From positions 1 to 33,696 of the IMG/VR virus record IMGVR_UViG_3300043432_000128: 33,696 nt of DNA. The stretch is one strand, 5' to 3'. Below are positions 1,029 through 24,938 of the stretch, piece by piece. The DNA comes from a virus. Lineage: Duplodnaviria; Caudoviricetes. The position numbers were made by a program, and so were the translations under genes. Under the pieces are notes generated by a model. It was given only the letters and a program-made list of their open reading frames with translations. It searched no databases and had not been told where the DNA came from. Within the stretch, counting starts at the first letter, position 1. Every line of letters starts with the position of its first letter.

Positions 1029-2015
1029 TTACGCTTGCGGTGCGGCCGCCTGGTTCTCCGACTTCGGATCCTCGCGGAATGACCCGACGTATGTCGAGCG
1101 GTGCGCGGTGGTGCGGAAGAACGTCTTCAGCGTGCACGCGGCGCGGAGGACGCGGATCGTGCGGCCGCAATGCTCGCAATGCCGGAGCTTGTGGATCTCC
1201 GGGACGCACGGGCCGCCGCAGCGGTCGCAGAACGCGTGGTGCTTCCAGTCGGTCGCCTCGAGCTGCGCCCTGGTCGGCTTCGGGCAGTAGGCACAATTGT
1301 CCGCGGCGATGATCGCGCGGCGCTTGGCCTCGCGCTCCGCCTGGGCGATCTTCTCGGCCTCCCTCTCGGAAAGCCAGGCGAACGCGACGGCCTCGGCCGG
1401 GGTGTCGGCGCTGATCGTTTCCTCGGTGCACAGCGTGCTCCGATCGGATCCGCCGCCGATCCAGCCGCGGCCGCTGCTGAACCCGCCGTAGCGGTATTCG
1501 ACCGACTCATACGCCTCTCCCCGGAAGCCGATCCTGGTCGCCGGCCGGACGCGGACGTTTTGCAGGGTGAGCACGCGCCTGGCGTACTGCATCGTTTCGT
1601 GGACCTGGGGCGCGTCGTAGCAGCAGGGCGGCTCCCCGGCGGCCGGGTGCTCTCCCCGATCTTCGGGCCGCGCAACCAGCAGCGCGAACTGTTCCGTTTC
1701 CTCCCCGATAACCGGCGACTCCGACCAGGCGATCGGCCGAACGAACGGCGCGCCGGGCACCGCCTGGATCTTCCCGCGGACGATCCTCGCCCCCTTCGGG
1801 ACGCGGACCCACGCGAGCTGCGTCGTGTGCTTCGGGAAGCCGGCGTCGCGCATCCGGGCGCACGTGAGGATCGACGGCACGGGGAGCAGCGGCGCGCCCG
1901 ACGGCCTGACGCCGGCGGCGGTGTACACGTTCCTGTCGTCCGTTCCCTTGCTCCCCGCGGCGATCGGTGCCGCGGCCTTCTTGCCGGAACGTACCGGCGG
2001 TTTGATCTCTGGCAT
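1029..2015 (-). CDS. Hypothetical protein with C-terminal Cys-rich zinc-binding region
   Basis: Start re-called at ATG 2015 (MPEIKPP), in the CACGACCATG context. C-terminal CAYC, CDRC and CEHC motifs follow a coiled segment. Confidence 0.75.
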   Translation of the reverse strand: MPEIKPPVRSGKKAAAPIAAGSKGTDDRNVYTAAGVRPSGAPLLPVPSILTCARMRDAGFPKHTTQLAWVRVPKGARIVRGKIQAVPGAPFVRPIAWSESPVIGEETEQFALLVARPEDRGEHPAAGEPPCCYDAPQVHETMQYARRVLTLQNVRVRPATRIGFRGEAYESVEYRYGGFSSGRGWIGGGSDRSTLCTEETISADTPAEAVAFAWLSEREAEKIAQAEREAKRRAIIAADNCAYCPKPTRAQLEATDWKHHAFCDRCGGPCVPEIHKLRHCEHCGRTIRVLRAACTLKTFFRTTAHRSTYVGSFREDPKSENQAAAPQA

Positions 2016-2026
2016 GGTCGTGGTGG

Positions 2027-2245
2027 TTATCGGCCGCCCTCCTTGGCCGCGCGCCGGCGCTCTCGGCACGGCTTGCATCGGCGCGGCAGGGTCATGCCGT
2101 TGTTTTGGAAGAAGTCGCGCTCCCCGGCCGTGATCGTGAACGGCTGGCCGCATCCCTGCTCGGCGCACGTCGCGTTGACCACGACTTCGTGGCGCCCTCC
2201 GTCGTTCCTGTCGTCGTCCCGGTCTTCGAACTGATCGCGTCGCAT
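2027..2245 (-). CDS. Zinc-ribbon protein (zf-trcl-like)
   Basis: CAEQGCGQPFTITAGERDFFQNNGMTLPRRCKPCR matches the CxxC..F.....E..FF...G...P.RC..CR pattern. Confidence 0.85.
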   Translation of the reverse strand: MRRDQFEDRDDDRNDGGRHEVVVNATCAEQGCGQPFTITAGERDFFQNNGMTLPRRCKPCRERRRAAKEGGR

Positions 2246-2261
2246 ATCGTTTGGGTGGTGG

Positions 2262-3620
2262 TTAGCCGAGGGAGTCCAGGACGCCCTCGATCGTGATCAC
2301 GGGGCCGTTCCAGGTGAACGGCTTCCCGTTGCGGACAAGCTCCGCGTTCTTCGTGTGCCCGACGTACCGGGCGATCATCGCGTCGACGTATCCCGGCGCC
2401 AGCTCGGAAATGCGCGCCCGGCGGCCGGTGCGCTCGCACGCGATCAGCGTCGATCCTCCCCCGCCGAACAGGTCGAGGACGATGTCGCCGCGGTTGCTGC
2501 TGTTGGCGATCGCCTTCGCCACCAGCTCGACCGGCTTCTGCGTCGGGTGGATCGGGTTCCGGCTCGGCCGGGTGAACACCCAGGCGTCGCCCTCGTCGCG
2601 TCCGCCGTTCCACCGGCGATCGACTCCCCCGGGCCATCCGTACAGGATCGGCTCGGCCTTCGCGGTGCGGACCTTCCCGACCTTGCCGACGAGGATCGGC
2701 TCGCTCTGCCGCTGGTAGTCGGATCTCCCCAGCGTGAAGCGGTCCTTGATCCACAGCACGGTCGTCGACCAATGGAACCCCGCGGCGATGAACGCGGCCT
2801 GGAGCGACGGCCACTCCTTGCAGCTCATGCAGATATATACCGCGCCGGCGGTGTTCTCCCGGATCCGCTCGAGGAACGCCGTCACGAAACCGCTCCACGC
2901 GCCGGCGTCCATTTTGTCGTTGGCGATCTTCTCATGCTTGCCCCACTTCTTGTTGCCGTGGTTCCCGTAGTCGACGTTGTACGGCGGATCCGTGAACGTC
3001 ATCTGCGCGACCTCCATCGTCTGCTCCCCCGGGATAGCGAGCAGCGCGGCCAGGGTCTCCTTCGCGGTGCTGTCGCCGCACACGAGCCGGTGATCTCCCA
3101 GCTGCCAAACGTCGCCGAGGACGCTGATGTGCTTCTTCTCCCCCGCGATCTCGTCGACCTGGTCTTCCTCGCTCTTGCCGTCCTGGTCTCCCCCGGCCCC
3201 GTATTCGTCGAACACCTGGTCGAGCTGGTCGCTCGGCATCGCGTGCTCGAACGCCAGCGGGTCTTCGTTGATCAGCTCCCCCAGGAGGCCGCGGTCGAAC
3301 TCCCCGTGGTGGCTGTTGTCCTTCACGTTCCACGCCTTCTCGGTGCGCGCGTCGACGCTCACCTCGACGACGGGGACGGTCTTCCACTCCAGCTCCTTCG
3401 CGGCGAGCAGCCGCATATGGCCGCCGATGACGATCCCGCGGCGCGTCGGGTTCACGTTGACGATGATCGGGCGGACGGCCAGGAACTCCGGGTCGGCCGC
3501 CATGCCGCGCTTCAGGTCCTCGAGGCGGCTCTTGCTGATGCGGCGCGGGTTGTAGTCGGCGAGCACCAGGTCCTCGGTCTTCCACTCCGCGATCTTCGGC
3601 TTTGGCTTTTGGTCGGTCAT
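2262..3620 (-). CDS. ParB-like N-terminal domain fused to an N6A/N4C DNA methyltransferase
   Basis: N-terminal YNPRRI..PIIVN..IGGHMRLLAA (ParB/Srx). Then GDVWQLGDHRLVCGDST, catalytic DPPY, HPTQKP and SAM-binding LDLFGGGGST (beta-class motif order). Confidence 0.92.
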   Translation of the reverse strand: MTDQKPKPKIAEWKTEDLVLADYNPRRISKSRLEDLKRGMAADPEFLAVRPIIVNVNPTRRGIVIGGHMRLLAAKELEWKTVPVVEVSVDARTEKAWNVKDNSHHGEFDRGLLGELINEDPLAFEHAMPSDQLDQVFDEYGAGGDQDGKSEEDQVDEIAGEKKHISVLGDVWQLGDHRLVCGDSTAKETLAALLAIPGEQTMEVAQMTFTDPPYNVDYGNHGNKKWGKHEKIANDKMDAGAWSGFVTAFLERIRENTAGAVYICMSCKEWPSLQAAFIAAGFHWSTTVLWIKDRFTLGRSDYQRQSEPILVGKVGKVRTAKAEPILYGWPGGVDRRWNGGRDEGDAWVFTRPSRNPIHPTQKPVELVAKAIANSSNRGDIVLDLFGGGGSTLIACERTGRRARISELAPGYVDAMIARYVGHTKNAELVRNGKPFTWNGPVITIEGVLDSLG

Positions 3621-3958
3621 GGCTTCGGTTCGTTATCCGGGCACTCGGGGGAGCGGCACTCGATGCCGTTCGCCGCGTGCGCCTCGGTCTTGTCGTAAAT
3701 GACGGCGTAGATCATCCCGACCGGCACCGCGTACAGGGTCTCCCCTTCGTGCTCGATCTCGACGCCGGCGGCCGTGCGGTAGTACACCAGATCGCCGGGG
3801 ATCGCGCTCACCTGGTCGACGATGTCCGCCGCGATCGCGCGGATCTCCCCCACGTCGATGCGCGCCATCGCGGCGCCGGGGAGGACGATGCCGCTCGAGG
3901 TCTCCGCGGTCTTGGGCTTCGGGGCGATGATGACGTTGCCGCCTGTTGGTCTCAGCAT
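3617..3958 (-). CDS. groES: Co-chaperonin GroES (Cpn10) homolog
   Basis: MLRPTGGNVII..ETSSGIVLP (mobile loop)..GDLVYY...GVEIEHEGE...IYAVI follows the GroES pattern. Extra C-terminal Cys-containing tail. Confidence 0.85.
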   Translation of the reverse strand: MLRPTGGNVIIAPKPKTAETSSGIVLPGAAMARIDVGEIRAIAADIVDQVSAIPGDLVYYRTAAGVEIEHEGETLYAVPVGMIYAVIYDKTEAHAANGIECRSPECPDNEPKP

Positions 3959-4251
3959 AGGGTTTTGTTCGCGTGCCGCTTCCTGTTCGCGGCAGCAGCC
4001 ATTTTTTTAAGTCGATCGAGCCGGCCGTCGCTTTTCATGTGGCACCTCCGGCAGCGCCACTTCCAGTCGGCGATGTCGCGGAGGTACCGACCGCTTTCAT
4101 TGCAGATCTCGAGCGGCGCGTTCTCCCCGCAGTCCGGGCACGCGGTCGGCTTGGGAACGTGGCGACGCGCCCATTGATGCAGCCCCTTGTAACTCACTCG
4201 GTCGCCCTTCCATTGCGGGTTTTTGCTCTCGATGTTGCAGCGCTTCCCCAT
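3952..4251 (-). CDS. HNH-like zinc-binding endonuclease domain protein
   Basis: NPQWKGDRVSYKGLHQW...CPDC...N.SG.Y.RD..DW.W.CRRCH pattern. Confidence 0.7.
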   Translation of the reverse strand: MGKRCNIESKNPQWKGDRVSYKGLHQWARRHVPKPTACPDCGENAPLEICNESGRYLRDIADWKWRCRRCHMKSDGRLDRLKKMAAAANRKRHANKTLC

Positions 4252-4252
4252 G

Positions 4253-4987
4253 TTATTTTTCGATCAGCGGACCTTTGCACCCTGGGCACTTCACGTCCAT
4301 GATGTCGACGTCAGCGGCGATCGTGCACTCTCGATCGCAATCGATGCATGTCGCCTTCCGGCCGCGGTCCGAAGGGACCGGGGGAGCAGCGTCGAAGCCG
4401 TCGTCTTCCGGCTTCCGCTTGGCGCGTGATGCGCCGGGGGAGCCGCCGTTGCGGTACTTGGCGACGACGTTCGACGCGCCCTGCTGGGACAGCGCCGCCT
4501 CGGACGCGATCTCGCGGTAGGAAAGGCCGGCGTTCCAGCCCTCGAGGATCTTGCGGTCGCGGTCCTGGATGCCGTCCGGGATCTCGATCGGGATCCGCTC
4601 CGCCTTCGCCGCCTTGGCGGCCGGGGGAGAAGCGGGGGAGCGGTGCGTCGGGGGAGCGATGTCGCGGCGTTCGATGACGTGCGGCTTGATGCCGGCGCGC
4701 TCCAGGGTTTCGGGGGAGACCGATACGTGCGTCAGCTCGATGCCCGTCGTGCGGTCGGGGGAGAAGCGGTCGACGATCTTGCCCAGGTCCTTGGCGACGC
4801 CCTCGAGCAGCTTGCGGTCCTCGTCGTGCCTGGTGAACGCGTCGCGGATCTGTGCGACGGCGCCGGCGAGGTTCGCGGCGTTCACGGGCGGGATGTCTTC
4901 GCGGCCGATCACCACGTCCTCGCGGACGTCGCCGGTTGCCTTCCGGCGTTTCTTGTACGGTCCGCGCTTTTTGGTCGTGGGCTTCAT
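4253..4987 (-). CDS. HTH and zinc-ribbon protein, putative transcription regulator
   Basis: Start re-called at ATG 4987 (MKPTTKK). RDRKILEGWNAGLSYREIASEAALSQQGASNVV is a sigma-r4/LuxR-like HTH. C-terminal CIDC and CPGC. Confidence 0.7.
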   Translation of the reverse strand: MKPTTKKRGPYKKRRKATGDVREDVVIGREDIPPVNAANLAGAVAQIRDAFTRHDEDRKLLEGVAKDLGKIVDRFSPDRTTGIELTHVSVSPETLERAGIKPHVIERRDIAPPTHRSPASPPAAKAAKAERIPIEIPDGIQDRDRKILEGWNAGLSYREIASEAALSQQGASNVVAKYRNGGSPGASRAKRKPEDDGFDAAPPVPSDRGRKATCIDCDRECTIAADVDIMDVKCPGCKGPLIEK

Positions 4988-5427: not shown

Positions 5428-5432
5428 ATCGG

Positions 5433-5987
5433 CTACGGCCGTCGCTTTTTGAGGTGGTCGCCGATCTTGCTCCAGCCGCCCGATCGTCGTCCGTACGTCC
5501 TGGGGATAATTTTATCCCCCGTCCGTTTAATCGTTTCTTCCTTCTCGTTTACGTTCCTAATCGTTAGGGTCCCATTTTTGGGACTGGTTACCCGTCCCAC
5601 TTTTGGGACTGGTACCCGTCCCACTTTTGGGACTGGATGTGGATTACTTCCGGCCAGGTTATCCCCAGCCGGCGCGATCCGCTCCGCCATCCCCGCCGCG
5701 TTCTCGGTGTCGTACCAGGTGATGTCGTAGACGTTCGGCCGGCCCGGCACGCGGTGAACGGTCAGCCGGCCGGCGGCCTCCATCGCCTTCACCTGGCGGA
5801 AGATCTTCTTGCGTTCCCAGCCGAGCGCCGCGGTGATCGTCGCCTCCCCGGGGAAGGCGCTGTTCTTGGCGATCGCGTGCAGCTTCAGGAACGCGTAGAA
5901 CCGCAGCTCGTCGCCATCGCAAAGCCGGATCAGCCGGAAGCTGATCACGTCGTACTTGCCTTGGAGGTGGCGGATCGTGCCGCGCAT
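5433..5987 (-). CDS. Phage replication initiator with N-terminal winged HTH
   Basis: FYAFLK....AFPG..TI...LGW....I......E..G.L...R..GRPNVY is the phage initiator wHTH pattern. Internal repeats resemble lambda O ori organisation. Confidence 0.75.
   Translation of the reverse strand: MRGTIRHLQGKYDVISFRLIRLCDGDELRFYAFLKLHAIAKNSAFPGEATITAALGWERKKIFRQVKAMEAAGRLTVHRVPGRPNVYDITWYDTENAAGMAERIAPAGDNLAGSNPHPVPKVGRVPVPKVGRVTSPKNGTLTIRNVNEKEETIKRTGDKIIPRTYGRRSGGWSKIGDHLKKRRP
5505..5637. repeat. Putative replication origin: three palindromic iterons plus AT-rich tract
   Basis: GTCCCA-YTTT-TGGGAC at 5569-5584, 5594-5609 and 5618-5633 (25 and 24 bp spacing), next to an AT-rich stretch at about 5505-5566. 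Confidence 0.7.
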
Positions 5988-6002
5988 GGTCGTGCGTCGC
6001 GT

Positions 6003-6263
6003 TTACTTTTTCGATGCCTTCGCCTTCTTGGTCTTCGCCGGCTTCGCGGCGGCCGGGCGTGCGGTCTTCGCGCGCGACTTCTTGATGCGGACGACCTCGC
6101 TCTCCGGGACGAACCACAGCGTCTTCTTGCCGGCGGTGACCGCGCGGCCCTTGATCCTGCCGTCCTTCAGCATCGTCTGAAGCGTCCGGCGCGGCACGCC
6201 GAGCAGCTCCGCGGCCTCGAGCGTTCCGATCTCCTTCCTCGTCCTCGTCTTCTTCGAACTCAT
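6003..6263 (-). CDS. Helix-turn-helix DNA-binding protein (HTH_17/excisionase-like)
   Basis: TLEAAELLGVPRRTLQTMLKDGRIKG....WFVPESEV with a Lys/Ala-rich tail. Confidence 0.85.
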   Translation of the reverse strand: MSSKKTRTRKEIGTLEAAELLGVPRRTLQTMLKDGRIKGRAVTAGKKTLWFVPESEVVRIKKSRAKTARPAAAKPAKTKKAKASKK

Positions 6264-6301
6264 CGTGGTGTCGTGTGTTCGCGGTTAGATCCCGCGCTCC
6301 C

Positions 6302-6350
6302 CGCATCGTATCACACCGGCGGCGCGTAGCGTTGCCCTGCTTGTGGACAA
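6302..6350 (-). promoter_or_regulatory. Putative promoter: TTGTCCACAA box, shared GC box, extended -10 TGaTACGAT
   Basis: Same architecture and 30-nt spacing as the element at 10104-10152. Lies upstream of the HTH/initiator genes. Confidence 0.6.
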
Positions 6351-6387
6351 ATGCGAAAGCCGCCCGGTGATCGGGCGGCTGTCGTCG

Positions 6388-6618: not shown

Positions 6619-6630
6619 ACGGTGTCGATG

Positions 6631-8130: not shown

Positions 8131-9437
8131 ACGCTGATGCCGGCGCCGATGCAGCTCAGGCAAACCCCGCACTTGCCGTCGGCGCACGCGTCGCCCTCCT
8201 TCGGCGCCGGTGCCGCGGCGATCGCGGCCTTGCGGTCCTTCGCCAGCCCGGCGATCGCGCCGGTCAGCATCTGCGATCCGAACACGTCCCTGTCGAGCGT
8301 GTTCGCCTGGGTGAGGATGTCGTCCACCTCGGCGTCGGTCTTCGCCGCGGCGAACTTCGCCTGGTAGTCGTTCAGCACTTGCATCTTCGCCTTGCCGGTC
8401 TCGACCTCGGCCGCCGGCGCGGGTGCCGGTGCGGCCGGCGCCGCGAACTGCGCGGCGACGTCGTTCTCGGGCGGTGGCGGGGCCTGTTCTGAACCCGTCC
8501 CATTGCCCCCCGCCGATGCTCCCCCTTCCGGCGGCGGCAGATCATCGAGGTCGGCCGACGCGAGCTTCGCGGCGATCGCGGCCAGGTTCTCGTCCTTCCA
8601 CTCCATGCCGGTGATCGCGCGGACGCGGTCCTTGAAGTCCGGCATCGTCTTCGGGTTGATCTTCAGCCGGTTCAGCTCGGTGGCGATCCGCTGCTTGGCG
8701 ACGGTGTAGTCCGGCGCCGGCTCCTTGCCGAGCTTGTTCCACTCGATCAGCTCCTTGCCGGTCTCGACGCTGATCACGAACTCCGGGCGATCCATGAACA
8801 GGCCGGTGCGGTCCTTCGACGCCTTGGCGAGGTGCTTGTCGTTCGTGAGGTTGAAGTTGAGCGTCAGCTCGTACTCCGTGCCCTCGCGCTGCACCTCCTT
8901 CATGCCGAGCTTGGTCACCTTGGTCTTCTTGCCGTCGGTCTCGACCGCGTAGTCCTGCTTCGTCCGCATGGTGACGATGAAATGGCACGGCGTGTGCAGG
9001 ATCGTGTCGATGAAGCGCCGGTGCCGCGGGGTCACCTTCGCCCAATCCTGATACTTGCCGCCCAAGCTGTCGACGATCTCGAGGCAGCCGCCCTTGCCGT
9101 CCCATTCGTGCGTCGCGCTGTCGACGATGATCACCTCGTACTTGCCGGTCGCCTCGAGCGCGGCGATCGCGGAAACGTACCGCTCCGGGGTGAACGGCGC
9201 CTCCAGCTCGATCGTGTCGAACTCCGGGATCTTCACGCCGCCGATCGTGCTCCCCGCGTACAGCGCCGCGCTGCCGTTCTCGGTGTCGATCACCGCGATC
9301 TTGTCCCAATCCCCGGTCATGCCGTATGCCAGCAGCAGCGCGCTGCCGGTCTTGCCGTATCCGCTCGGGCCGCTCATGCCGATCTTCAGCGGCACCCGCG
9401 CGCGCGATGCGCGCTTGATCTGAATGACTTCGCTCAT
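8127..9437 (-). CDS. AAA-family ATPase (AAA_24/Sak4-like recombination protein)
   Basis: Walker A GPSGYGKT, IDTE, Walker B VIIVDS, KDRTG. Adjacent to the exonuclease. Pro/Ala-rich linker and C-terminal Cys cluster. Confidence 0.85.
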   Translation of the reverse strand: MSEVIQIKRASRARVPLKIGMSGPSGYGKTGSALLLAYGMTGDWDKIAVIDTENGSAALYAGSTIGGVKIPEFDTIELEAPFTPERYVSAIAALEATGKYEVIIVDSATHEWDGKGGCLEIVDSLGGKYQDWAKVTPRHRRFIDTILHTPCHFIVTMRTKQDYAVETDGKKTKVTKLGMKEVQREGTEYELTLNFNLTNDKHLAKASKDRTGLFMDRPEFVISVETGKELIEWNKLGKEPAPDYTVAKQRIATELNRLKINPKTMPDFKDRVRAITGMEWKDENLAAIAAKLASADLDDLPPPEGGASAGGNGTGSEQAPPPPENDVAAQFAAPAAPAPAPAAEVETGKAKMQVLNDYQAKFAAAKTDAEVDDILTQANTLDRDVFGSQMLTGAIAGLAKDRKAAIAAAPAPKEGDACADGKCGVCLSCIGAGISV

Positions 9438-9459
9438 GGTCGTGCGTTGTTACCCGCGC

Positions 9460-10065
9460 TCACTCGAGCACGGTGACGAATAAGGTCTGCCGGCCGAACG
9501 TCCGGGCGCGCTCGATGTCGCTCCCCATGAAGACGTCGACCGCGTAGTGGTACCGCCGGTTCATCCGATCGGCGACGATGCAGCGGATCTCGCGCTGGTA
9601 CTTCGGCCGCGACTGGATCCGCAGCCAGGTGCCGAGCGGGACGAAGTTGGCGGCGCAGATCGTTTCCCCGGCCGCGTGCCGGGCGCAAATGTCCGATCCG
9701 TCGGCCGCGATGCAGGGGGTGTCGTCGGTCTGCTCCGGGACGCTGTTGTATGCGCTCACCTCCCGGGCCACGGCGGCCGCCGGGATCCACCCGATCGTGG
9801 GGTCCTGGGGGGTCTCCCAGGCCGCGATCGCGTTTAGGCCGAAACTGGACCCCTCCCCCGACCGTTTGCCGGGGTCCTCGGCTGGCGTGGCGGGGTCTGG
9901 CTGCGACGCGACCCCCTCCGTGGCTACCTCTCCCCCTTGGTTTTCATCCTGGGGCCGTATAGCGCCCCGGGCGATGATCGCGGCGGCCAATAAAAAGGCC
10001 ACGAGGGCGGCCGCCGCGAACGCTCGCGTGATCCTCGCGGCCTGGGCATCGATGTCGTGCTGCAT
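9460..10065 (-). CDS. Membrane-anchored 3D-domain (MltA-like) protein
   Basis: N-terminal TM FAAAALVAFLLAAAIIA. C-terminal SAYNS..EQTDDTPCIAA..AANFVPLGT..VADRMN.RY...VDVFM. Start at 10065 (CACGACCATG context); 10080 is an alternative. Confidence 0.8.
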   Translation of the reverse strand: MQHDIDAQAARITRAFAAAALVAFLLAAAIIARGAIRPQDENQGGEVATEGVASQPDPATPAEDPGKRSGEGSSFGLNAIAAWETPQDPTIGWIPAAAVAREVSAYNSVPEQTDDTPCIAADGSDICARHAAGETICAANFVPLGTWLRIQSRPKYQREIRCIVADRMNRRYHYAVDVFMGSDIERARTFGRQTLFVTVLE

Positions 10066-10103
10066 GGTCGTGTCGGTCATGGGCGGATATTTCCGTCCTT
10101 GTC

Positions 10104-10849: not shown

Positions 10850-11526
10850 TGGATCCCGCGGCGCTCGAGGTGCGCCTTCAGCCGGGGGTTGATGACCGAC
10901 GCGAACACGAGCGGCTTCTCGAGGATCCGCGTCAGCGCGTCGATGAATTCGTCGAAGCGTCCGCTACCTGGTGCGATGCTCTCGATGTTCGGGCAGACCC
11001 ACTTGTCGCCCTCGTCGTAAAGGTCGGCGCTGAACCCCTTCCCTCGAGCGACGGTGAACGGGACGTCGGCGATGCCGTGCCGGCCGCGGATCCGCTGCAT
11101 CCGATCGCCGCGGTTGTACGCCTCGAGCGTCACGGCCTCGAGCTGCACGGCCGGGTGATGCTCCCCCGCGTCCTCGCGCTTCGTTTCCTCATGGATGTGC
11201 GCGTAGAACTTCTGCGTGGTCTGCGGCGCGTCCTGGAACGCGGCCATCATCTGATCCTTCCAGCGGTCGGTGTTGATCGCCTCGCGGAGCTGGTCGAACG
11301 CGTAGTACCACGCCATCGGGTTTCCCCAATTGAAGATCCCGTGCGTGCCCAGGAGCGTGCCGCGCTTGTCGAGCTGAAGGCCGCGGACGACGATCAAGAC
11401 GCCGCCCTCGCTCACGCAGTCCTCGAGCACCTCCCCGGTGATCGTGTTCGTGATCGTGACGCGGTGCGGCGTCGGTCCTTTGTGCGCGGTCACCTTGTTG
11501 TGCTTTTCGACGGTGTCTTGCGGCAT
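10840..11526 (-). CDS. Hypothetical protein, C-terminal region possibly GNAT-like
   Basis: Start re-called at 11526 (MPQDTVEK, preceded by TAACCCCCAAGACC). C-terminal IESIAPGSGRF...VINPRLKAHLERRG. Confidence 0.65.
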   Translation of the reverse strand: MPQDTVEKHNKVTAHKGPTPHRVTITNTITGEVLEDCVSEGGVLIVVRGLQLDKRGTLLGTHGIFNWGNPMAWYYAFDQLREAINTDRWKDQMMAAFQDAPQTTQKFYAHIHEETKREDAGEHHPAVQLEAVTLEAYNRGDRMQRIRGRHGIADVPFTVARGKGFSADLYDEGDKWVCPNIESIAPGSGRFDEFIDALTRILEKPLVFASVINPRLKAHLERRGIQCL

Positions 11527-11537
11527 GGTCTTGGGGG

Positions 11538-11843
11538 TTACGCCGTCTTGTACCCTTCGCCGTTCTCGTTCCTCTGCCACGCGTATGCCGGGCAGCCGCA
11601 CTCGCGGCAATGATGATCCGCGCCGCGCTGGTCGTTCTCGATGAACTCATGCATGGTCTTGACCATGCCGGCGCGCTCGGCCGAGCTGATGTAAAAAATG
11701 GCGCCCTTCCGATCGGTGCGTCCGTTGTCGGTCAGCAGCAGCGTGAAAAAGAAGCCGGTCCCCTCGAGGGCCTGGCCGATCTTCCCGCCGATCTCGTTCA
11801 GCTTCTCCTTCGCGGTCGCGTCCTCGACGTGGTACTTCTCCAT
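11538..11843 (-). CDS. Hypothetical protein
   Basis: Start re-called at 11843 (MEKYHVED). GFFFTLLL....IFYISSAER..M...M.EFI and C-terminal CRECGC. Confidence 0.7.
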   Translation of the reverse strand: MEKYHVEDATAKEKLNEIGGKIGQALEGTGFFFTLLLTDNGRTDRKGAIFYISSAERAGMVKTMHEFIENDQRGADHHCRECGCPAYAWQRNENGEGYKTA

Positions 11844-12393: not shown

Positions 12394-12644
12394 ACGCCCT
12401 GGCGGTCAAGGGCGGCCGGCACCGGCTCGGCGACGTCGGCGCGTTCGAACGCGTCGAGGTTCGCCGCGTCGGCGCTGTCGATGCCGCCGATGATCGTGCG
12501 GACCTTGCCGGCGATCGCTCCGAAGTTGTCGGCGATGTTCTCCAGCTGCTCGGTCAGGATCTCCGCTTGGCCGTGGTCAATGCGGACGCTGGTCCGCGTC
12601 TTGCCGTTGGCCGACTCGATCGTGATCGTAATGCGGTCTTGCAT
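12390..12644 (-). CDS. Small hypothetical protein
   Basis: 84 aa, start context CACGACACCACCATG. Confidence 0.65.
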   Translation of the reverse strand: MQDRITITIESANGKTRTSVRIDHGQAEILTEQLENIADNFGAIAGKVRTIIGGIDSADAANLDAFERADVAEPVPAALDRQGV

Positions 12645-12665
12645 GGTGGTGTCGTGTTCGGTGGA

Positions 12666-12869
12666 TTAGGAAAGCTTGCGGCCGACCTCGCGCCAAATGT
12701 CGGTGCCGAGCATCGTATGATCGGCGCCGGCGTCCTTCGCGGCGCGGTTCGCCTGGCGGCGTGCCGCGGCGGCGATGATCTCGGCCTGGTGGTCGATGAA
12801 CTCGGCGCGCTCGTCGGCGCTCTGATCGTCGAAATGGATCCGGCACGTCTTGCAGTTTTTGTCGTGCAT
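12666..12869 (-). CDS. Small hypothetical protein
   Basis: Start re-called at 12869 (MHDKNCKTC), context TAACCCCGACCACCATG. Confidence 0.6.
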   Translation of the reverse strand: MHDKNCKTCRIHFDDQSADERAEFIDHQAEIIAAAARRQANRAAKDAGADHTMLGTDIWREVGRKLS

Positions 12870-12880
12870 GGTGGTCGGGG

Positions 12881-13150
12881 TTAGGCGCTGGCGGCGATGC
12901 CGTCGGCGCACGTTTCACAGCTCGCGTTGCCGTGGATGTCGCGCGTGGTCGCGCGCTCCCCGCAGCCGCACTTCGGGGCGAGCGGGTTCTCCTTGCTGAT
13001 GCCGGCGGCGAACTTCAGGATCTCCGCGGCGCGTTCGAACGCGCGCGCCTTGGCGAGCCACTCGCCGGCGATCGCGCGATCCTTCTCGACCTTGGCGCCG
13101 GCGCGGATGCGCTGGGCCTCGGCCTGGACGTGCTCGATGACGTTCTGCAT
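12881..13150 (-). CDS. First gene of the early operon; small protein with C-terminal Zn ribbon
   Basis: 89 aa, KCGCG...CETC, CACGACCATG start. Confidence 0.7.
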   Translation of the reverse strand: MQNVIEHVQAEAQRIRAGAKVEKDRAIAGEWLAKARAFERAAEILKFAAGISKENPLAPKCGCGERATTRDIHGNASCETCADGIAASA

Positions 13151-13371
13151 GGTCGTGCTGGTTATGGATCAAAGGGTAGGGGATCCAACCCGGCCGGATC
13201 CTGCCGGTGCCGGGGTTACCCCCGGCGTTTCGTTCCCCTCCCCTTTGATCCCCAGGCCGCCGCCGATCTTCCTCGGTGCCCTGCGGCTGTTGTTTGGCAG
13301 CGCTTTCCGCTGCGCCCTGCCTGGGCTTGTCTGCCTTATTCTCCTGTAAGGTGCTCCCCTTCCCTTCCTTA
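13151..13371 (-). ncRNA. Structured ~220-nt 5' leader of the early operon
   Basis: Nested stems: 13166-13183 with 13234-13251 (18 bp, one mismatch), CCCAGGC/GCCTGGG, GCCGGGG-GTAA-CCCCGGC, GCAGCG-GAAAG-CGCTGC and GTAAGG/CCTTAC. Confidence 0.55.
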
Positions 13372-13376
13372 CTTAT

Positions 13377-13405
13377 ACAGTACCATATAATCGGTCTTTT
13401 GTCAA
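13377..13405 (-). promoter_or_regulatory. Sigma70-type early promoter
   Basis: TTGACA (13405-13400), 17 nt, TGg-TACTGT (13382-13377), in a locally AT-rich patch. Confidence 0.8.
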
Positions 13406-13452
13406 GGGTGCCGTCCGGCCCCTCCCCTGCCTGGACGCGCCTTGCGCCGACG

Positions 13453-13461
13453 TGGTATCCT
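13453..13461 (+). promoter_or_regulatory. Putative divergent extended -10 promoter (TGgTATCCT)
   Basis: Back-to-back with the early promoter. Predicted +1 near A13468, pointing to the bidirectional terminator at 13575-13607. Confidence 0.4.
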
Positions 13462-13574
13462 GCGGCGATGCGGGACGACAGCGCCTCCGGGCGTGCGGAT
13501 CCGGCCGATGAACCACGGCGTCAACGCTCCGGCGCGGACGTTGGTGATCCCGGCGATCGGTCCGCCACCGCGAC

Positions 13575-13607
13575 AAAAAACCGGCTCCCCTTTCGGGGGC
13601 CGGTTTT
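13575..13607. terminator. Bidirectional Rho-independent terminator
   Basis: AAAAAA-CCGGCTCCCC-TTTC-GGGGGCCGG-TTTT. Confidence 0.8.
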
Positions 13608-13668
13608 GATATACGATCGGCCGATCTCGAGCGTCGTCCGATCTCCCCCGTATTGTTCCACGGGGAAC

Positions 13669-13707
13669 AAAAAAAGACCACCCGGATCCTTTCGGACCCG
13701 GGGGTCT
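13669..13707 (-). terminator. Rho-independent terminator (end of late operon and of the sRNA)
   Basis: Minus strand AGACCCCCGGGTCC-GAAA-GGATCCGGGTGGTCT-TTTTTT. Confidence 0.85.
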
Positions 13708-13753
13708 CCCCGCCACGCACGACCATGCCGGGCGGTGGAAATGAACCCACCGC
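13669..13753 (-). ncRNA. Predicted ~85-nt antisense small RNA complementary to the CACGACCAUG start motif
   Basis: Extended -10 TGaTACGAT (13768-13760). 5' hairpin GCGGTGG/CCACCGC starts at the predicted +1. Unpaired CCGGCAUGGUCGUGCGUGG, then a terminator stem and U7. Confidence 0.65.
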
Positions 13754-13765
13754 GCTCCGATCGTA

Positions 13766-14014
13766 TCACCTCCGGCCGGCGTTGGACAGGATGTCTTGGA
13801 TCTTCACCTGCGTGCGGCTGCGGATGTAGTAGGCGACCGGGGCCAGCGTGGTGATCCCGAGGATGATCTCACGGACGCCGGCGACGATGTGGTTCCCACC
13901 TTCCACGACGGCGGCCTGTTGGTCCGGCCCGATGACGCCCAGGAGACCGGCGAGGGATGCCGCCGTTGCGATCGTGGCGATCCAGAACTCCGACGTCTTG
14001 ATGCCTGGTTTCAT
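13766..14014 (-). CDS. Holin-like membrane protein
   Basis: MKPGIKTSEFW start, two hydrophobic segments, AYYIRSR tail. Last gene of the late operon. Confidence 0.7.
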   Translation of the reverse strand: MKPGIKTSEFWIATIATAASLAGLLGVIGPDQQAAVVEGGNHIVAGVREIILGITTLAPVAYYIRSRTQVKIQDILSNAGRR

Positions 14015-14128
14015 ATTTCCATTGGATCAGCGCGGCGACCGGGAGCGCTCCGGCGGTTCCGGCGGCGACGGTCGACGCGAGAATTATTTTTGCGACCGCT
14101 CGGGCGATCGCCCGGGCGACGCGGCCGG

Positions 14129-15247
14129 TCATAGCGGCCGCTGCGGCAGCTTCGCCCAGGTGTCCTTGTCGACGTTGATCGTGCGCGCGGTGGTGATCCC
14201 CCGCATGATGCACGTCAGCGACGCCTGGCCGGCGCGGTCGGCCGCGATCGTCCGCAGCTCCCCGCCGGCGATGATGCCGAAGGATCCGTCGCCCGGGTTT
14301 TGGAACGCGAGCTTGTTGTCGTGCTGCTTGCAGAAGTCCTTCCCGAACTGGTCCGGCGGCACGATCGCGCTCGGGATGATCGTCCAGCCGTTGAACACGT
14401 AGATCCCCTTCACGAACCCGACGGCGGTCTGCTCGCCGGCTTCGAAGTAGGCCGCGGTGATCGCGCTGTATCCCTTCCAGCGTCCGCTGGTGAACGTGTA
14501 GCGGCCGCCCCAGGATCCCGGGATGAAGATCGCCTTCGTGCCGATCGGGATCCCGCACTCGGCGACGTCGGTCTTGCCGAACGCGTCGCCGTAGACCGCG
14601 TGCCCCCACTTCGGTTCGCCGGCGGCCGGGTGGCGGATGACCGGGCAGCTGCACCAGCCGTTGTTGGTCCCGGTGAACCCGAGGATCGCGCCGAGGCCGT
14701 ACTTGATCGCGGCGGCGAAGATCTCGATGTCGTCGGTGCCGCCCTCGGCCATGCGGTAGTTGTCGAAGACGTCGAGCTTCGTTCCCTCGGCCGCGATCGC
14801 GGCGGTGACGCGGCTCTTGTCGCCGACGACGCTCTCCGGGAGCGGGTTCCCGTTCGCGTCTTCGTCCGGGAGGATCTTCTTCGGCACCAGGCGGCCGGCG
14901 ACGGTCTCCTTCACGCCGTCGCGGAGCGATGCTCCCCCGCCGGGCTGGCGGATGAACGGGTACAGCGACGATGCGCTGAACGTGACGTCGTCGCCCTTGG
15001 TCTTCTTGCGGATGACGCGGCCGTATGCCGCGCACGCCTCGGCGACGCAGCTGCTGCGGCCGCCCTGGTCGCGGACCTCGACCTCGAGGCCGACGGACCT
15101 GGTGGCGCTGAAGCCGGCATCCCATTCCGCCTCGGTCACGGGCGCGACGGCGCCGGCGGCGATCAGGTCGCGGACGCGGTGATCGCGCTCGTCCTTCTCG
15201 TCCCGGATCGCGCCGGTCCCTTCCTGGATCTCTTTTTCTTCGGGCAT
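14129..15247 (-). CDS. Papain-like (C1) cysteine peptidase in the endolysin position
   Basis: Start re-called at 15247. VRDQGGRSSCVA (Gln/Cys), GHAV (His) and IPGSWG (NSWG equivalent). Confidence 0.8.
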   Translation of the reverse strand: MPEEKEIQEGTGAIRDEKDERDHRVRDLIAAGAVAPVTEAEWDAGFSATRSVGLEVEVRDQGGRSSCVAEACAAYGRVIRKKTKGDDVTFSASSLYPFIRQPGGGASLRDGVKETVAGRLVPKKILPDEDANGNPLPESVVGDKSRVTAAIAAEGTKLDVFDNYRMAEGGTDDIEIFAAAIKYGLGAILGFTGTNNGWCSCPVIRHPAAGEPKWGHAVYGDAFGKTDVAECGIPIGTKAIFIPGSWGGRYTFTSGRWKGYSAITAAYFEAGEQTAVGFVKGIYVFNGWTIIPSAIVPPDQFGKDFCKQHDNKLAFQNPGDGSFGIIAGGELRTIAADRAGQASLTCIMRGITTARTINVDKDTWAKLPQRPL

Positions 15248-15258
15248 GGTCGTGGGGG

Positions 15259-17093: not shown

Positions 17094-17094
17094 A

Positions 17095-17927: not shown

Positions 17928-17934
17928 ACTTTTT

Positions 17935-19437: not shown

Positions 19438-19449
19438 ATTGGGTATCGG

Positions 19450-20994: not shown

Positions 20995-21005
20995 AGGGGT
21001 TTCGG

Positions 21006-21224
21006 TTAGCGGCGCTGCTGGGCCTTGGCGGCCGCCTCGCGCTCGAGCGCGCGCCGGGTGGCGATGATCTCCAGGTACGCGTCGAGGTCGTGCGCGTCGA
21101 TCGCGCGCGCCTCGTCCGGCGTCCAGCCGTACTCGCGGCTAAGGGTCTCCAGGATCACCGCCTCCGACGGCTCGGCCGTCCCCGTCAGCTCGCGCCTCAG
21201 CTGGCCGGGGTCTCGGCTTTTGGG
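21006..21224 (-). CDS. Tail assembly chaperone GT extension (expressed by -1 frameshift)
   Basis: No start of its own. The -1 frame encodes LSREYGWTPDEARAID, a tail chaperone motif. Slippery C CCA AAA at 21224-21218. Confidence 0.75.
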   Translation of the reverse strand, partial: PKSRDPGQLRRELTGTAEPSEAVILETLSREYGWTPDEARAIDAHDLDAYLEIIATRRALEREAAAKAQQRR

Positions 21225-21574
21225 GATGTGCGGATCCCGTCGACCGCGGCGCACAGGACGTCGCCGTCCTCGGCCGTCAGGCCCTCGAACCACGCGCGGG
21301 TGAACGGGTGCTCCGTGTCGTCCTTCTCGCGGACGCTGACGACGATCTGCTCGAGCGCGACCAGCGCTTCCTCGGTCTGCGCGTCGAAGTCGTATCCCTC
21401 GAGCTGCGGCTCGAACTTGTCCTTGCTCACGCGGTCGAACTTCACCTTGACGCCGTCGCGGATCGCCTTCTTGATCTTCTCGCGCGCGCCCCAGGTGAGC
21501 TTGGCGCGGATCTTCGCGGTCGCGCCGGCGTCGGGGAGCAGTACGTCCCTGGTCTCGATGTTTGCGTCTGGCAT
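21197..21574 (-). CDS. Tail assembly chaperone (G protein)
   Basis: 125 aa between tail tube and tape measure. CACGACCATG start. Confidence 0.8.
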   Translation of the reverse strand: MPDANIETRDVLLPDAGATAKIRAKLTWGAREKIKKAIRDGVKVKFDRVSKDKFEPQLEGYDFDAQTEEALVALEQIVVSVREKDDTEHPFTRAWFEGLTAEDGDVLCAAVDGIRTSPKAETPAS

Positions 21575-21594
21575 GGTCGTGCGGTTTGGGTTTC

Positions 21595-22614
21595 TTAGCT
21601 CGCGTCGTGGTCGTAGTCCTCGCGTCCGTTGACGAGCGCAACGCGCACGGCGTAGCCGGCGGTCGCGTCGTAGTGGGCCGTGAACTCCAGCGACTCGGCC
21701 GCGATGTCGTCGATCGGGCGATCGAAGTCGTTCGCCTCGAACGTCACGTTGGGGAAGGTGAAGGTGATCGACGGGTGGATCGCGGTCGCCGCGATGTTCA
21801 CGTCGCTGCGGGTGATGACGACCTGGGCGGCGCGGATCGTGCCGGCCTTGAACAGGTCGTACAGTGTGGTGTCGTCGACGTCGATCTTGATCTTGCCGCC
21901 GGCGGTGACCACGGTGGCGATCACGTTACCGGGGTTCAGCTCGTCGACCGCCTGGTCCGGCCGCGCGCCGTTGGCGATCTCGATGCCCAGCTCCTTGACG
22001 CGGGTCGCGGTGGCGGCGCCGAGGCCGGCGACGTTCGCCGCGAACTTCACGCTGACGTCGTAGTGGCGGAAGAAGACGTCGGTGGCGAGCTGCGCGTCGA
22101 GGGCGGTGGTGTCGAACGTGGTCGCCTCGTCTTCCGATCGGGCGATCAGCGGCACGGTCGCCTTGACCAGGTCGCCGGGGACGATCTCGATCGCCAGCGA
22201 TGCCGGCAGCGCGCCGGGGTACTCGTAGTCCTGGACGCCGGGCTGGTGGAGCGCGGCGGTGATCGTCGGGTGCTCGGGATCCTCGGCGAGGACGTCGAAC
22301 TGGTGGTCGACGACGCCGCTCTGGCCGACGCGGGGGGTGCTGGTGACGTCGCCGAGCAGCGCCTTCAGGAAGAAGCCGATCGTTTCGGCGCGGACGTTGA
22401 ACTCGACCGGGCCTTCCGCGTGGCTCATGGCGATGTCGGATCCGCTCGAGGCGATCTTGCTGCCGCGGGTCTCCTTCACCAGGACCTTGTTAAGCACGGC
22501 CTTGATGCCGGACGGGGCGCGTGCCGGGATCCACGCCTGGGGTGCGACCGCGGTGCCGCGGGCGTTCGGGTCCTCGACGCCGACGCCGATGATGATGTCT
22601 TCTCCACGAAGCAT
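21595..22614 (-). CDS. Major tail tube protein
   Basis: 339 aa, beta-rich, IGVGVE...GTAVAP N-terminus, canonical position. Confidence 0.8.
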   Translation of the reverse strand: MLRGEDIIIGVGVEDPNARGTAVAPQAWIPARAPSGIKAVLNKVLVKETRGSKIASSGSDIAMSHAEGPVEFNVRAETIGFFLKALLGDVTSTPRVGQSGVVDHQFDVLAEDPEHPTITAALHQPGVQDYEYPGALPASLAIEIVPGDLVKATVPLIARSEDEATTFDTTALDAQLATDVFFRHYDVSVKFAANVAGLGAATATRVKELGIEIANGARPDQAVDELNPGNVIATVVTAGGKIKIDVDDTTLYDLFKAGTIRAAQVVITRSDVNIAATAIHPSITFTFPNVTFEANDFDRPIDDIAAESLEFTAHYDATAGYAVRVALVNGREDYDHDAS

Positions 22615-22639
22615 AGGGGTGTTGGTTAATTCCGTTTTG

Positions 22640-22648
22640 AGTATAGCA
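22640..22648 (-). promoter_or_regulatory. Extended -10 promoter TGCTATACT upstream of the tail tube gene
   Basis: Intergenic; same TGCTAT core as 27168-27176 and 32869-32877. Confidence 0.6.
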
Positions 22649-22653
22649 CGGGA

Positions 22654-23073
22654 TCAGTTGCGGACGTAACGCACCGCCTTGATCTTCACGACGGCGATGC
22701 GATCGGTCCCGTTGGCGCGTTCGGCGTATCCCCACACGCTGGGGGCCGGCGTGCACCACTCGGCCGCGGATCCGAGCGCGGTGCGGTCCCGGAAAAGGGT
22801 CAGGACCTCGTCGACCGCCTTCTCGAGCGCGATGTCGGCGGCGTCTTGGCCCTCGGTGAAAGGGTACAGCAGCCGGACGTTGAACACGAAGGTCTCCTTG
22901 TTCGACGCCGGCGCGGTTTCGTGGTAGTCGGCCTCGCTCTCCGACGGCGAAACGATCGCCACGGGGTACCCGGCGACCACGGATCGGTCGGTGCGGTAGA
23001 CCTCCTGGATCGTTTCGGCGTCCTCGAGCTTGTCGACGATCGCTGCGCGGATGTCCGCGAACTCTTGGGCCAT
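22654..23073 (-). CDS. Tail terminator / completion protein
   Basis: 139 aa, IRAAIVDKL....YPVAIV pattern, immediately upstream of the tail tube gene. Confidence 0.65.
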   Translation of the reverse strand: MAQEFADIRAAIVDKLEDAETIQEVYRTDRSVVAGYPVAIVSPSESEADYHETAPASNKETFVFNVRLLYPFTEGQDAADIALEKAVDEVLTLFRDRTALGSAAEWCTPAPSVWGYAERANGTDRIAVVKIKAVRYVRN

Positions 23074-23085
23074 ATTTCTTGGGGG

Positions 23086-23571
23086 TTAATCGGCCAGCCA
23101 GTTGACCACGTCCTCCGCGGCGCGGCCGAGGATCTTCACGATGCCTTCCTCGCTCTGCTCCGCGGCGCGCTTCATAAACGGGTTGTGCTTGATGCCCTTC
23201 CGGCGGATCGACGCGCGGACCGCCCAGGGGTTCATGCCCTTCTTCTTCGCCCAGCGGTAAAGGGTCCCGCCGGGCTGCGCCTCGATCTCCGGGATCGTGA
23301 ACGGCCGGGTGCGCTGCGCGATGCCGTCGCCGTGCAGCTTCATGCCGTACTCGAGGTCCGTGAAGATCGCCGCGCGCAAACCCTCCCCGGTGATCTCGCG
23401 CCTGATGCTCTTGCGGAGGTTGCCGACGGATGCCGGCGTTTCCCGGATCGTCGCCTCCATAAGGAACGTCGACGCGTCGAGGACGCCGCGCTCGACAAGC
23501 CGGCGCGCGTTCGACCGTGCGTCCTTCAGCTTGCTGATCAGCTTGCCTTTGAACGTCACGCCGAGCTGCAT
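23086..23571 (-). CDS. HK97 gp10-like neck/tail component
   Basis: Start re-called at 23571. TPASVGNLRKSI...EYG...GIKHNPFMKRA. Confidence 0.8.
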   Translation of the reverse strand: MQLGVTFKGKLISKLKDARSNARRLVERGVLDASTFLMEATIRETPASVGNLRKSIRREITGEGLRAAIFTDLEYGMKLHGDGIAQRTRPFTIPEIEAQPGGTLYRWAKKKGMNPWAVRASIRRKGIKHNPFMKRAAEQSEEGIVKILGRAAEDVVNWLAD

Positions 23572-23582
23572 ATCGTTTCGGG

Positions 23583-23906
23583 TTACTGCGCCGGCGCGAG
23601 GACGAGCGTCGCCTCGAGGCGGCGGAACGGTCCGTCGCCCTGGCGCGTCACGCCCTTCACGTCGAACGTGTCGCCGCCGCCGGTCAGCCGCATCCCGATC
23701 GCCAGCGATGACGCGACGTCGTCGCTGAAGAAGCGGAACACTTTCCCGTACTCCCCGTCGCTCAAGGCCGCGAACTCGGCCGGCGCGACCTCGGTCGAAC
23801 CGGCGATGACCAGGCCGGTGTCGGCGTAGGCCAGCTTCTCGCTCCCCGGTTCGGATCCTTCCGGGGCCTCGAGCGCGTGGATGCTGAACGTGCGGAGGTT
23901 GAACAT
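23583..23906 (-). CDS. Head closure (stopper) protein
   Basis: 107 aa, beta-rich, position after the adaptor. Confidence 0.6.
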   Translation of the reverse strand: MFNLRTFSIHALEAPEGSEPGSEKLAYADTGLVIAGSTEVAPAEFAALSDGEYGKVFRFFSDDVASSLAIGMRLTGGGDTFDVKGVTRQGDGPFRRLEATLVLAPAQ

Positions 23907-23909
23907 ACG

Positions 23910-24506
23910 TCAGGCGATGATGATCTTTGCGTGGGTGTCGAGCGTGGCCTGGATCTCCGGGTCCACGTCCTTGGCGAACCCGACGCTGAAGCTGCCGGCG
24001 TTCGCGTTGCTGGTGCCTTCCGCGGTGCTGCGCTCGTATCCGCGGCCGGCGAGCTTCAGCGTGGCGAACTCGATGTCCTCGGGCAGCGTCTGCGCCTGGG
24101 CGTCGCTGCTGTCGTCGGGGAGGACGTAGCCGGCGGTGTACGTCACGCGCACGTTCTGCTCCCCGGCGTCGAAGCCGCGGTCGCGCGTGATGATGCCGGC
24201 GCCGTAGTCGACCGCGGCCTGGCCGGCCTCGATCTCGGCGTCGAGGTCGATCACGGTGCCGCCGATCGTGAGGACGATGCCGCTGTCGTCGCTTCCCTCC
24301 TGGACGGGGAACTGGCGGAGCTGGATCTGCGTCGTGTCGTCGCCGTCGTGCTTCTCGACGTGCTCCGCAACGCCGAAGGAGCGGCTGCATTGCCGCTCCA
24401 CGAACGCGCTCGCGCCCTTCAGGATCTTCTCGAGCTTCGCGTCCTTCGACGTGTCGGCCAGCGGGATCCCGAGGTGGTTTTTCAGTCGGTCGACGGTGCT
24501 CAGCAT
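23910..24506 (-). CDS. Head-tail adaptor (gp6/gp15-like)
   Basis: TVDRLKNHLGI...D..LE..L..AS..VE..C.R.F and VRVTYTAGY...LPEDI..A. Confidence 0.85.
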   Translation of the reverse strand: MLSTVDRLKNHLGIPLADTSKDAKLEKILKGASAFVERQCSRSFGVAEHVEKHDGDDTTQIQLRQFPVQEGSDDSGIVLTIGGTVIDLDAEIEAGQAAVDYGAGIITRDRGFDAGEQNVRVTYTAGYVLPDDSSDAQAQTLPEDIEFATLKLAGRGYERSTAEGTSNANAGSFSVGFAKDVDPEIQATLDTHAKIIIA

Positions 24507-24518
24507 AGGCGTTGTCGG

Positions 24519-24839
24519 TTAGCGCTTCTTGCCGCCGGATCGCTTGCGCTTGGGCGCCGCGGGGAGCTGCGGGGCCATGCTCGGCGGCTTCGTGGTGGTG
24601 GTGCCCTTGGCGACCGCGGGGACCGGCTTGGCGGGTCCGCGCGCCGCGTCCTTCGTCCATCCCATGCCGCGCGTGCTGTCGGGGTGGATCACCTTCGTGC
24701 CTTCCGGCCCGGCGACGTCGCGGACGTGATCTGCGAAGCCCTGGCGCACCAGCACCTCGGCCGTGCTGCGTTCGAATGTCGCGGTGTCGCCTGGTGCGTA
24801 GACGTGGTACGCCTGTTTGAACTTGATCACGGATCGCAT
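24519..24839 (-). CDS. Small capsid-downstream protein with basic tail
   Basis: Start re-called at 24839 (CACGACCATG). YAPGDTATF....AEVLVRQGFA. Confidence 0.7.
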   Translation of the reverse strand: MRSVIKFKQAYHVYAPGDTATFERSTAEVLVRQGFADHVRDVAGPEGTKVIHPDSTRGMGWTKDAARGPAKPVPAVAKGTTTTKPPSMAPQLPAAPKRKRSGGKKR

Positions 24840-24938
24840 GGTCGTGCGGGTTATGGATGAAGGGGTGGGGTCCGTCTTCTCGGACGGTCCGCCGGCCGGG
24901 AGCACCCGGCCGACGTCGGTCTCTGAAGCGCTGATCGC

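Follow-up and report, generated by a model that had tools for sequence, protein, structure and literature searches.

A start-codon word shared by eight genes of a phage genome, and a candidate antisense RNA encoded in the same genome

Why should eight genes scattered along a phage genome carry the same ten letters at their start codons, and does the genome hold anything able to read them? The question is raised by the IMG/VR record IMGVR_UViG_3300043432_000128, a virus of the Caudoviricetes, hereafter referred to as the window (the whole stretch of DNA analysed, 33,696 nucleotides, nt). A preliminary description had reported plus-strand copies of the word CATGGTCGTG at 2013, 5985, 9435, 10063, 13148, 15245, 21572 and 24837. 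All eight are present, and a ninth copy, inverted relative to all genes, was found in a non-coding gap, within a unit predicted to encode a small RNA. The reading favoured here, with a probability of roughly 0.6, is that the phage makes an antisense RNA acting in trans, which prevents initiation at genes belonging to several lytic modules, the targets featuring a convergent start-codon address.

Since the window carries a 153-nt terminal repeat, it corresponds to a circular phage genome of 33,543 bp, with a GC content of 67%. Terminase, portal, protease, HK97-type capsid, tail tube and tape measure genes were matched by family and profile searches, as were two HTH_17-like genes; the same searches matched no integrase or repressor family among the 52 open reading frames (ORFs), and scans of the phage for tRNAs and Rfam families gave no matches. 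The 52 ATG starts called are all on the minus strand, and no plus-strand gene was called anywhere in the window. Starts in relatives and hosts come from a caller developed for this analysis, which recovered 49 of the 52 window starts. Words resembling a Shine-Dalgarno (SD) sequence are found upstream of one start out of 52, and the start regions are A/C-rich.

All eight ATGs included in the word open called minus-strand genes. They had been described as the best start codons of these genes; this is ambiguous for the start at 10065, because an alternative in-frame ATG lies 15 nt upstream, at 10080. The variants listed at 11524, 12642 and 31598 (one mismatch each) and at 12867 (two mismatches) were verified, and the word, as had been remarked, contains no SD sequence. 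Its rarity by chance was confirmed as well, nine exact matches being found on both strands, where 100 dinucleotide shuffles gave 0.12 on average and never more than 2. The heptamer CACGACC is common to 8 of the 52 starts, and to 8 of the 35 which do not overlap other genes. In column shuffles of the phage's own starts the highest multiplicity was 5 in both sets, and a multiplicity of 8 was reached in 0 of 200,000 trials; a matrix derived from the remaining 27 free starts gives an expectation of 0.02. The excess of the eight copies goes beyond composition, and beyond the start bias of the phage itself. Outside the word, similarity among the eight starts is at background (mean 9.2 versus 8.8 of 28 bases), one pair excepted: the starts at 24839 and 13150 share 20 of 28 upstream bases. 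No sense copy occurs away from an AUG, a point on which the preliminary description had proposed a check, and it is the copy on the opposite strand that had been overlooked. CACGACC occurs without ATG five further times on the coding strand, and a one-mismatch copy of the word at 11652 is an internal methionine codon, not a start. The latter is part of a short palindrome (window 11650-11670, inside the 11843 gene), which also includes a 9-10-nt antisense piece and lies about 130 nt before the start at 11526.

The ninth copy, matching CACGACCATG exactly on the plus strand, is located in the gap where the late genes end and the early genes begin. Markov models, applied post hoc, put the expected number of such copies at 0.02-0.04 for the plus strand, and at 0.001-0.002 for the 1,571 bases of non-coding DNA. 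On the coding strand, this copy is complementary to the eight starts, over 14, 14, 13, 13, 12, 12, 12 and 11 nt, across each AUG. Of the other 369 plus-strand ATGs examined (370 including the ninth copy), none has matches of at least 10 nt to two or more starts.

The surrounding sequence has the predicted organization of a small RNA gene, from an extended -10 promoter to an intrinsic terminator (Table 1). The region 13666-13753 folds at -54.9 kcal/mol (z -5.40), and equally stable structures were obtained in 0 of 200 shuffles; the opposite strand folds at -39.0 kcal/mol, the coding strand being favoured by 16 kcal/mol. The terminator-like hairpin is the strongest minus-strand combination of hairpin and T run in a genome-wide scan. 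Matches to the promoter pattern TGnTAnnnT number nine on the minus strand and two on the plus strand of the whole genome. Six of the nine have a predicted start 35 nt or less from a gene, one is preceded by TTGACA 17 nt upstream, one falls inside the portal gene, and the last is the one at 13768, seven of the other eight being located before genes. No Rfam family matched the unit at gathering score, four sub-threshold matches (E 0.5-2.3) being found in 13100-13900. The unit is unchanged in contigs from two of three DNA runs, X1 (possibly the source) and X2, both of one sample, and no joints are listed over 13050-14150; the contigs of X3 do not reach the unit. The promoter sequence TGATACGAT is also found at 6313, before an HTH_17 gene, and the 6313 and 13768 promoters additionally share GGAGCGCGG downstream, both on the minus strand; the likeness suggests either duplication or co-regulation.

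In the predicted fold the hexamer GUCGUG is displayed in a loop. The invariant part of the targets ends at position -7, where the predicted loop ends, and matches past -7 are partial. When starts are ranked by predicted net pairing after opening costs, the top nine of the 52 are the eight word starts and the variant start at 31600. In the mechanism proposed, an RNA of about 85 nt would be transcribed from the promoter-to-terminator unit, and its loop would pair first with the unstructured start region; pairing would then extend over the AUG and exclude the 30S subunit. Coupled downstream genes would be silenced too, and repression could spread in this way because the starts at 9437 and 5987 head gene chains. 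An RNA repressor of this sort would touch recombination, probably replication, packaging, head, tail and lysis modules. It might either damp lytic growth in a carrier state or serve as a late feedback brake, the latter being conceivable because the candidate RNA sequence also ends the late operon. A bolder proposal is that the lytic programme is under one small RNA repressor replacing a protein repressor, the genes of each module having evolved the same start-codon address and one loop reading all of them; it is advanced tentatively, as possible rather than probable.

Table 1. Features of the candidate regulatory system (window coordinates). Match length is the complementarity of the start region to the ninth copy, spanning the AUG.
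Feature	Position	Strand	Remarks
Ninth exact copy of the word	13718..13727	+	Inverted relative to all genes; non-coding gap
Candidate small RNA gene, ~85 nt	13669..13753	-	5' hairpin, seed hairpin and intrinsic terminator (predicted)
Predicted extended -10 promoter	13760..13768	-	Overlaps stop of holin-like gene; +1 near 13753, first base of 5' hairpin
5' hairpin (predicted)	13732..13753	-	8 pairs, 6-nt loop
Seed hairpin, weak (predicted)	13710..13731	-	Loop 13723-13718, GUCGUG, complement of invariant CACGAC; 5' stem strand CAUG, complement of C-AUG
Intrinsic-terminator-like hairpin with U7 (predicted)	13669..13709	-	Also predicted end of late operon
Word at start 24839	24837..24846	-	106-aa gene directly after major capsid gene; 13-nt match; weak PHROG matches, function unknown
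Word at start 21574	21572..21581	-	Gene between tail tube and tape measure; 14-nt match; no significant family
Word at start 15247	15245..15254	-	Cysteine-protease-like gene upstream of holin-like gene; 12-nt match
Word at start 13150	13148..13157	-	First gene after TTGACA-17-TACTGT promoter (13405-13377); 12-nt match
Word at start 10065	10063..10072	-	201-aa protein, hydrophobic N-terminus; 11-nt match; no significant family
Word at start 9437	9435..9444	-	AAA_24 / Sak4-like annealing protein; 13-nt match; heads chain of four further overlapping genes
Word at start 5987	5985..5994	-	Possible helix-turn-helix replication initiator; 14-nt match; heads chain of five closely coupled genes
Word at start 2015	2013..2022	-	328-aa protein, function unknown; 12-nt match
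Variant CACGGCCATG at start 31600	31598..31607	-	Gene upstream of and overlapping large terminase gene; change G-U compatible with loop
Variant CAAGACCATG at start 11526	11524..11533	-	Mismatch inside predicted loop pairing
Variant CACCACCATG at start 12644	12642..12651	-	Mismatch inside predicted loop pairing
Holin-like last late gene	13766..14014	-	Putative, from position and hydrophobic N-terminus; no significant family; stop overlaps predicted promoter

Several of the genes carrying the word, or the 31600 variant, have plausible roles. The 24839 gene may encode a head-completion protein, to judge from its position or from weak hits, and the position of the 21574 gene points to a tail assembly chaperone. 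The open frame without an ATG of its own which follows the latter on the minus strand (21197-21006), and reaches the tape measure start, is what is expected of a tail-chaperone frameshift extension, although no slippery site was located. The family profile of the 15247 gene matches the cysteine protease PDB 3ois (E 4e-8), and the product is probably a lysin. Matches of the 5987 protein are weak (HTH_36, E 0.13; PHROG replication initiation protein, E 0.084). The 31600 gene, by its position, is presumably the small terminase gene (PHROG terminase small subunit, E 0.22). Profile searches and an atlas look-up assigned no family to the 13150 protein. Its gene, the first of the early genes, has a structured leader of 220 nt (13370-13150, minus strand), in which a long stem stops a few bases before the word.

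The host is likely one of the Patescibacteria, a group of ultra-small bacteria, as suggested by the labels of the records and contigs hosting capsid relatives. Named capsid relatives were found in Colwellbacteria, Falkowbacteria and Pacebacteria records, and the eight genome contigs with such relatives are labelled as Patescibacteria groups (five), Gammaproteobacteria (two) and Bacteroidia (one). Part of the Parcubacteria are reported to have lost the anti-SD sequence (PMC9297842). That the word might simply be the generic start context of the host genome, a case in which the preliminary description would have been wrong, is not what the sampled genomes, class- and phylum-level relatives of the putative host, indicate. 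Over 251 genomes of the class of genome G009, the word never exceeds 16 copies per 1.1 Mb. None of 39 fetched copies is at a called start, and none of 552 called starts bears the word. In 301 genomes of the class and 401 of the phylum, TAAC followed after 2-10 nt by the word is found no more than twice per genome, versus five times in the 33.5 kb of the phage; the samples of 251 and 301 genomes are largely the same genomes, and not independent. GGTCGTG, the complement of the heptamer, is absent from five 16S genes of class-level relatives, three of them full and two partial, which end in a canonical anti-SD. Of the two functions that had been envisaged for the word, that of a dedicated initiation signal is not supported on this account, and also because 44 of the 52 starts lack the word. 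The other, a target for an RNA translational regulator, finds support in a candidate regulator in the same genome.

Related phage loci were collected into a set of 61 non-redundant loci of at least 7 kb, shorter and redundant ones being dropped; most are partial, and distant (tail tube identity 28-60%, capsid identity up to 67%). The nearest locus features one copy of the word, which marks the start of the tail tube gene, and lacks an inverted copy 3' of the holin; its peptidase start has the same flanks, with changes at two positions of the word. The closest capsid relative in the protein collection is 80% identical. A search of viral contigs for TAACCNNCACGACCATG returned 33 single matches, none with repeated copies at starts, and the 17-nt seed pattern returned 10 matches, none accompanied by further copies. 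No copy of the word was found in 21 loci hosting AAA_24 relatives, nor in two further loci retrieved with the peptidase profile, and a tail tube scan with a single protein found nothing. In the 301 genomes no homologue of the unit was detected, the seven short matches being at chance level.

Among the closest parallels are the start-associated sequences (SAS) found in mycobacteriophages of Cluster K and in Microbacterium phages of Cluster EF, which are phage-specific asymmetric words located at a subset of gene starts (PMC3203893, PMC7302621, PMC11373665). K1 phages host one inverted SAS copy not tied to a gene (PMC3203893). Late transcription appears to begin in the gap holding it, and the role of SAS was unknown as of 2024, according to PMC11373665. 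The present word is likewise short and asymmetric, found in one orientation at a subset of starts (8 of 52) and rare in host-lineage genomes, here the sampled class and phylum relatives; it has likewise a single inverted copy, in a predicted hairpin loop within a non-coding gap. The two differ in that SAS are 13 bp long, have an SD core and are located 3-9 nt before the start, whereas the word is G-poor, lacks an SD and includes the AUG. SAS are confined to non-structural genes, while the word marks both early genes and genes of the virion and lysis arm (24839, 21574, 15247). SAS are often accompanied by ESAS inverted repeats, of which none is found here, and the inverted copy described here, unlike that of SAS, has a predicted promoter and terminator of its own.

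The right halves of Adephagia and Anaya each hold 16 sense and one inverted SAS (two mismatches or fewer), the inverted copy being located in a hairpin loop in a non-coding gap (Adephagia L356:29683-29695, between genes 92 and 93; Anaya L358:30871-30883). The inverted-SAS hairpin was found in 130 phage records, and the loop is displayed in seven of eight further loci with a match. In a consensus fold of 11 sequences, 11 of 34 pairs have changes on both sides, a count made with no correction for kinship. As modelled from these loci (L356, L358 and L369-L377), the Cluster K1 phages conserve their inverted SAS as the C-rich loop of a hairpin. A similar loop, on a different stem, is found after tRNA-Trp at a different locus in Larva and Miryou. 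Adephagia gene 39 (L356:2329) bears a SAS, and the predicted fold of its product has been matched to Hfq (PMC11373665, Table 1); it is possible that this product is an RNA chaperone for the Cluster K loop.

A number of observations weigh against a trans-acting antisense RNA. Neither repeated copies of the word nor a comparable antisense site was found in any of the 61 relative loci, where the best scores for the latter correspond to low-complexity runs. Start words can moreover converge without such an RNA, because three relatives repeat words of their own that have no antisense partner: AAAAAAT at 7 of 20 starts in L185, TATATAT at 5 of 28 in L205, TAAATTT at 4 of 16 in L180. A standard -35/-10 scan of 12800-14200 found no promoter. 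Opening the seed would cost about 10 kcal/mol, and longer read-through transcripts fold differently, with the seed buried. The targets mix early and late genes and form no clean temporal class. The analogue has its exceptions too, as no inverted SAS accompanies the 18 sense copies in the right half of Pixie or the 10 of AnnaSerena, and the loop of Ekdilam mismatches its unchanged SAS at two positions. Because of this last mismatch that loop may be a general mimic of the anti-SD.

Other explanations have been considered. The word could be a start dialect peculiar to this genome, which duplication or gene conversion has spread among SD-less starts rich in A and C, the ninth copy being a functionless inverted relic. 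The 24839 and 13150 starts are likely the result of a duplication, relatives do repeat start words, ACC-ATG starts are common in GC-rich relatives, and the phage encodes a Sak4-like protein. The remaining pairs among the eight starts are, however, at background outside the word, and the words repeated in relatives are low-complexity A/T runs rather than a mixed 7-mer. A relic would also not account for the promoter and terminator that flank the ninth copy, nor for its loop register, and this account is deemed unlikely. Somewhat more doubtful is the possibility that the word is a DNA site, an operator or a stoperator-like element bound by a phage protein such as the HTH_17 product encoded at 6263, with the ninth copy as a further site near a promoter. 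Stoperators of Cluster A mycobacteriophages are many short, asymmetric copies dispersed in short intergenic gaps and oriented with transcription (PMC9283540); two HTH_17-like genes are present, and the promoters of the 6263 gene and of the unit have nine letters in common. Yet stoperators are sites of a two-domain repressor, and no fixed AUG register is described for them, whereas all eight sense copies of the word are in exact AUG register; neither a repressor family nor an integrase family was matched among the 52 ORFs of the phage. A DNA site, besides, needs neither display in a loop nor a G-U-compatible variant.

An effect of the inverted copy in cis only, a read-through transcript pairing with the start at 13150 some 570 nt downstream and shutting the first early gene, agrees with the minimum-energy fold of 13770-13130, in which both copies pair; it is improbable, as two terminator-like hairpins and a promoter separate the copies and the other seven copies are left unexplained. 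The sampled genomes are incomplete, and the host may lie outside them, which leaves some room for the word as a generic host start context or an alternative ribosome-binding signal. This is very improbable given its rarity in class genomes, its absence from called starts and the 16S data. Scarcely credible is a plus-strand ORF of 34 codons (13725-13829) truly starting at the ninth copy. The ORF does feature the same word with its ATG, and a plus-strand extended -10 is found at 13453. Its codon score is nonetheless -0.15, whereas 50 real genes score 0.02-0.54 over their first 34 codons; the ORF also overlaps the holin-like gene in antisense, and no further plus-strand gene was called. An invertible segment, or a miniature inverted-repeat transposable element (MITE), between 13148 and 13727 was rejected, since an inverted pair is formed by these two copies alone and seven copies have no partner; for a MITE, neither a GIY-YIG match nor joints over 13050-14150 were found. 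Activation in trans through an SD provided by the GGAG of the RNA was ruled out on logical grounds, since pairing would include the AUG itself and the strands have the wrong polarity.

If a trans-acting antisense RNA is made, how does it compare with known ones? In the C4 RNAs of P1 and P7 (PMC5320573), a phage RNA of about 80 nt pairs by stem-loops, in trans, with the initiation region of the phage's own mRNA. The predicted fold and register likewise place a loop-displayed complement to the phage's own initiation regions. C4 has two loops acting on one target region, derives from a precursor cut by RNase P and belongs to an immunity system based on protein, whereas here one loop would face eight or nine dispersed AUG regions; the Rfam C4 model found no match in the phage unit. 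Trans-encoded small RNAs (sRNAs) also have a promoter, a short seed, an intrinsic terminator and several targets at initiation sites (PMC12197685), promoter and terminator being here predicted. Known multi-target sRNAs pair imperfectly and often need Hfq, and the phage ones covered in that review act on host genes, or on one or two phage genes; here, in contrast, the RNA would target genes of the phage itself, which have converged on a single perfect word. In its mode of action the system would be like C4 and trans-encoded sRNAs, and it has a likeness to SAS, yet on the features tested it does not fully fit any of these classes. No description was found in the literature of a phage RNA complementary to a start-codon word that several genes share, a search which reached few subscription papers.

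A shared address read by one antisense loop offers a concrete mechanism for the start-associated repeats of phages. It would represent an RNA regulon with several targets within one phage genome, give a first view of how genes are regulated in a phage of SD-less Patescibacteria, and provide a template for silencing SD-less genes through occlusion of the AUG. Thanks to the Cluster K parallel, the idea can be tested in cultured phages growing on M. smegmatis. Were a single RNA repressor indeed in charge of the lytic programme, the device might be general among phages, and the orphan inverted copy and the function of SAS in mycobacteriophages would be accounted for as well.

Other traits of the genome may be mentioned. 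On the minus strand, 3' of the candidate RNA, there follow another terminator-like hairpin (13575-13610), with A and T runs at its sides, and a long imperfect hairpin (about 13490-13570); because the plus-strand extended -10 at 13453 points into these hairpins, a second small RNA is possible. The sequence TTGTCCACA, presumably akin to a DnaA box, occurs on the minus strand at 6350 and 10152, each time in an intergenic gap upstream of a gene. The phage also carries a GroES-like gene (3617-3958) and two glycan-modifying genes, rhamnosyl transferase-like (91-804) and pyruvyl transferase (32891-33637).

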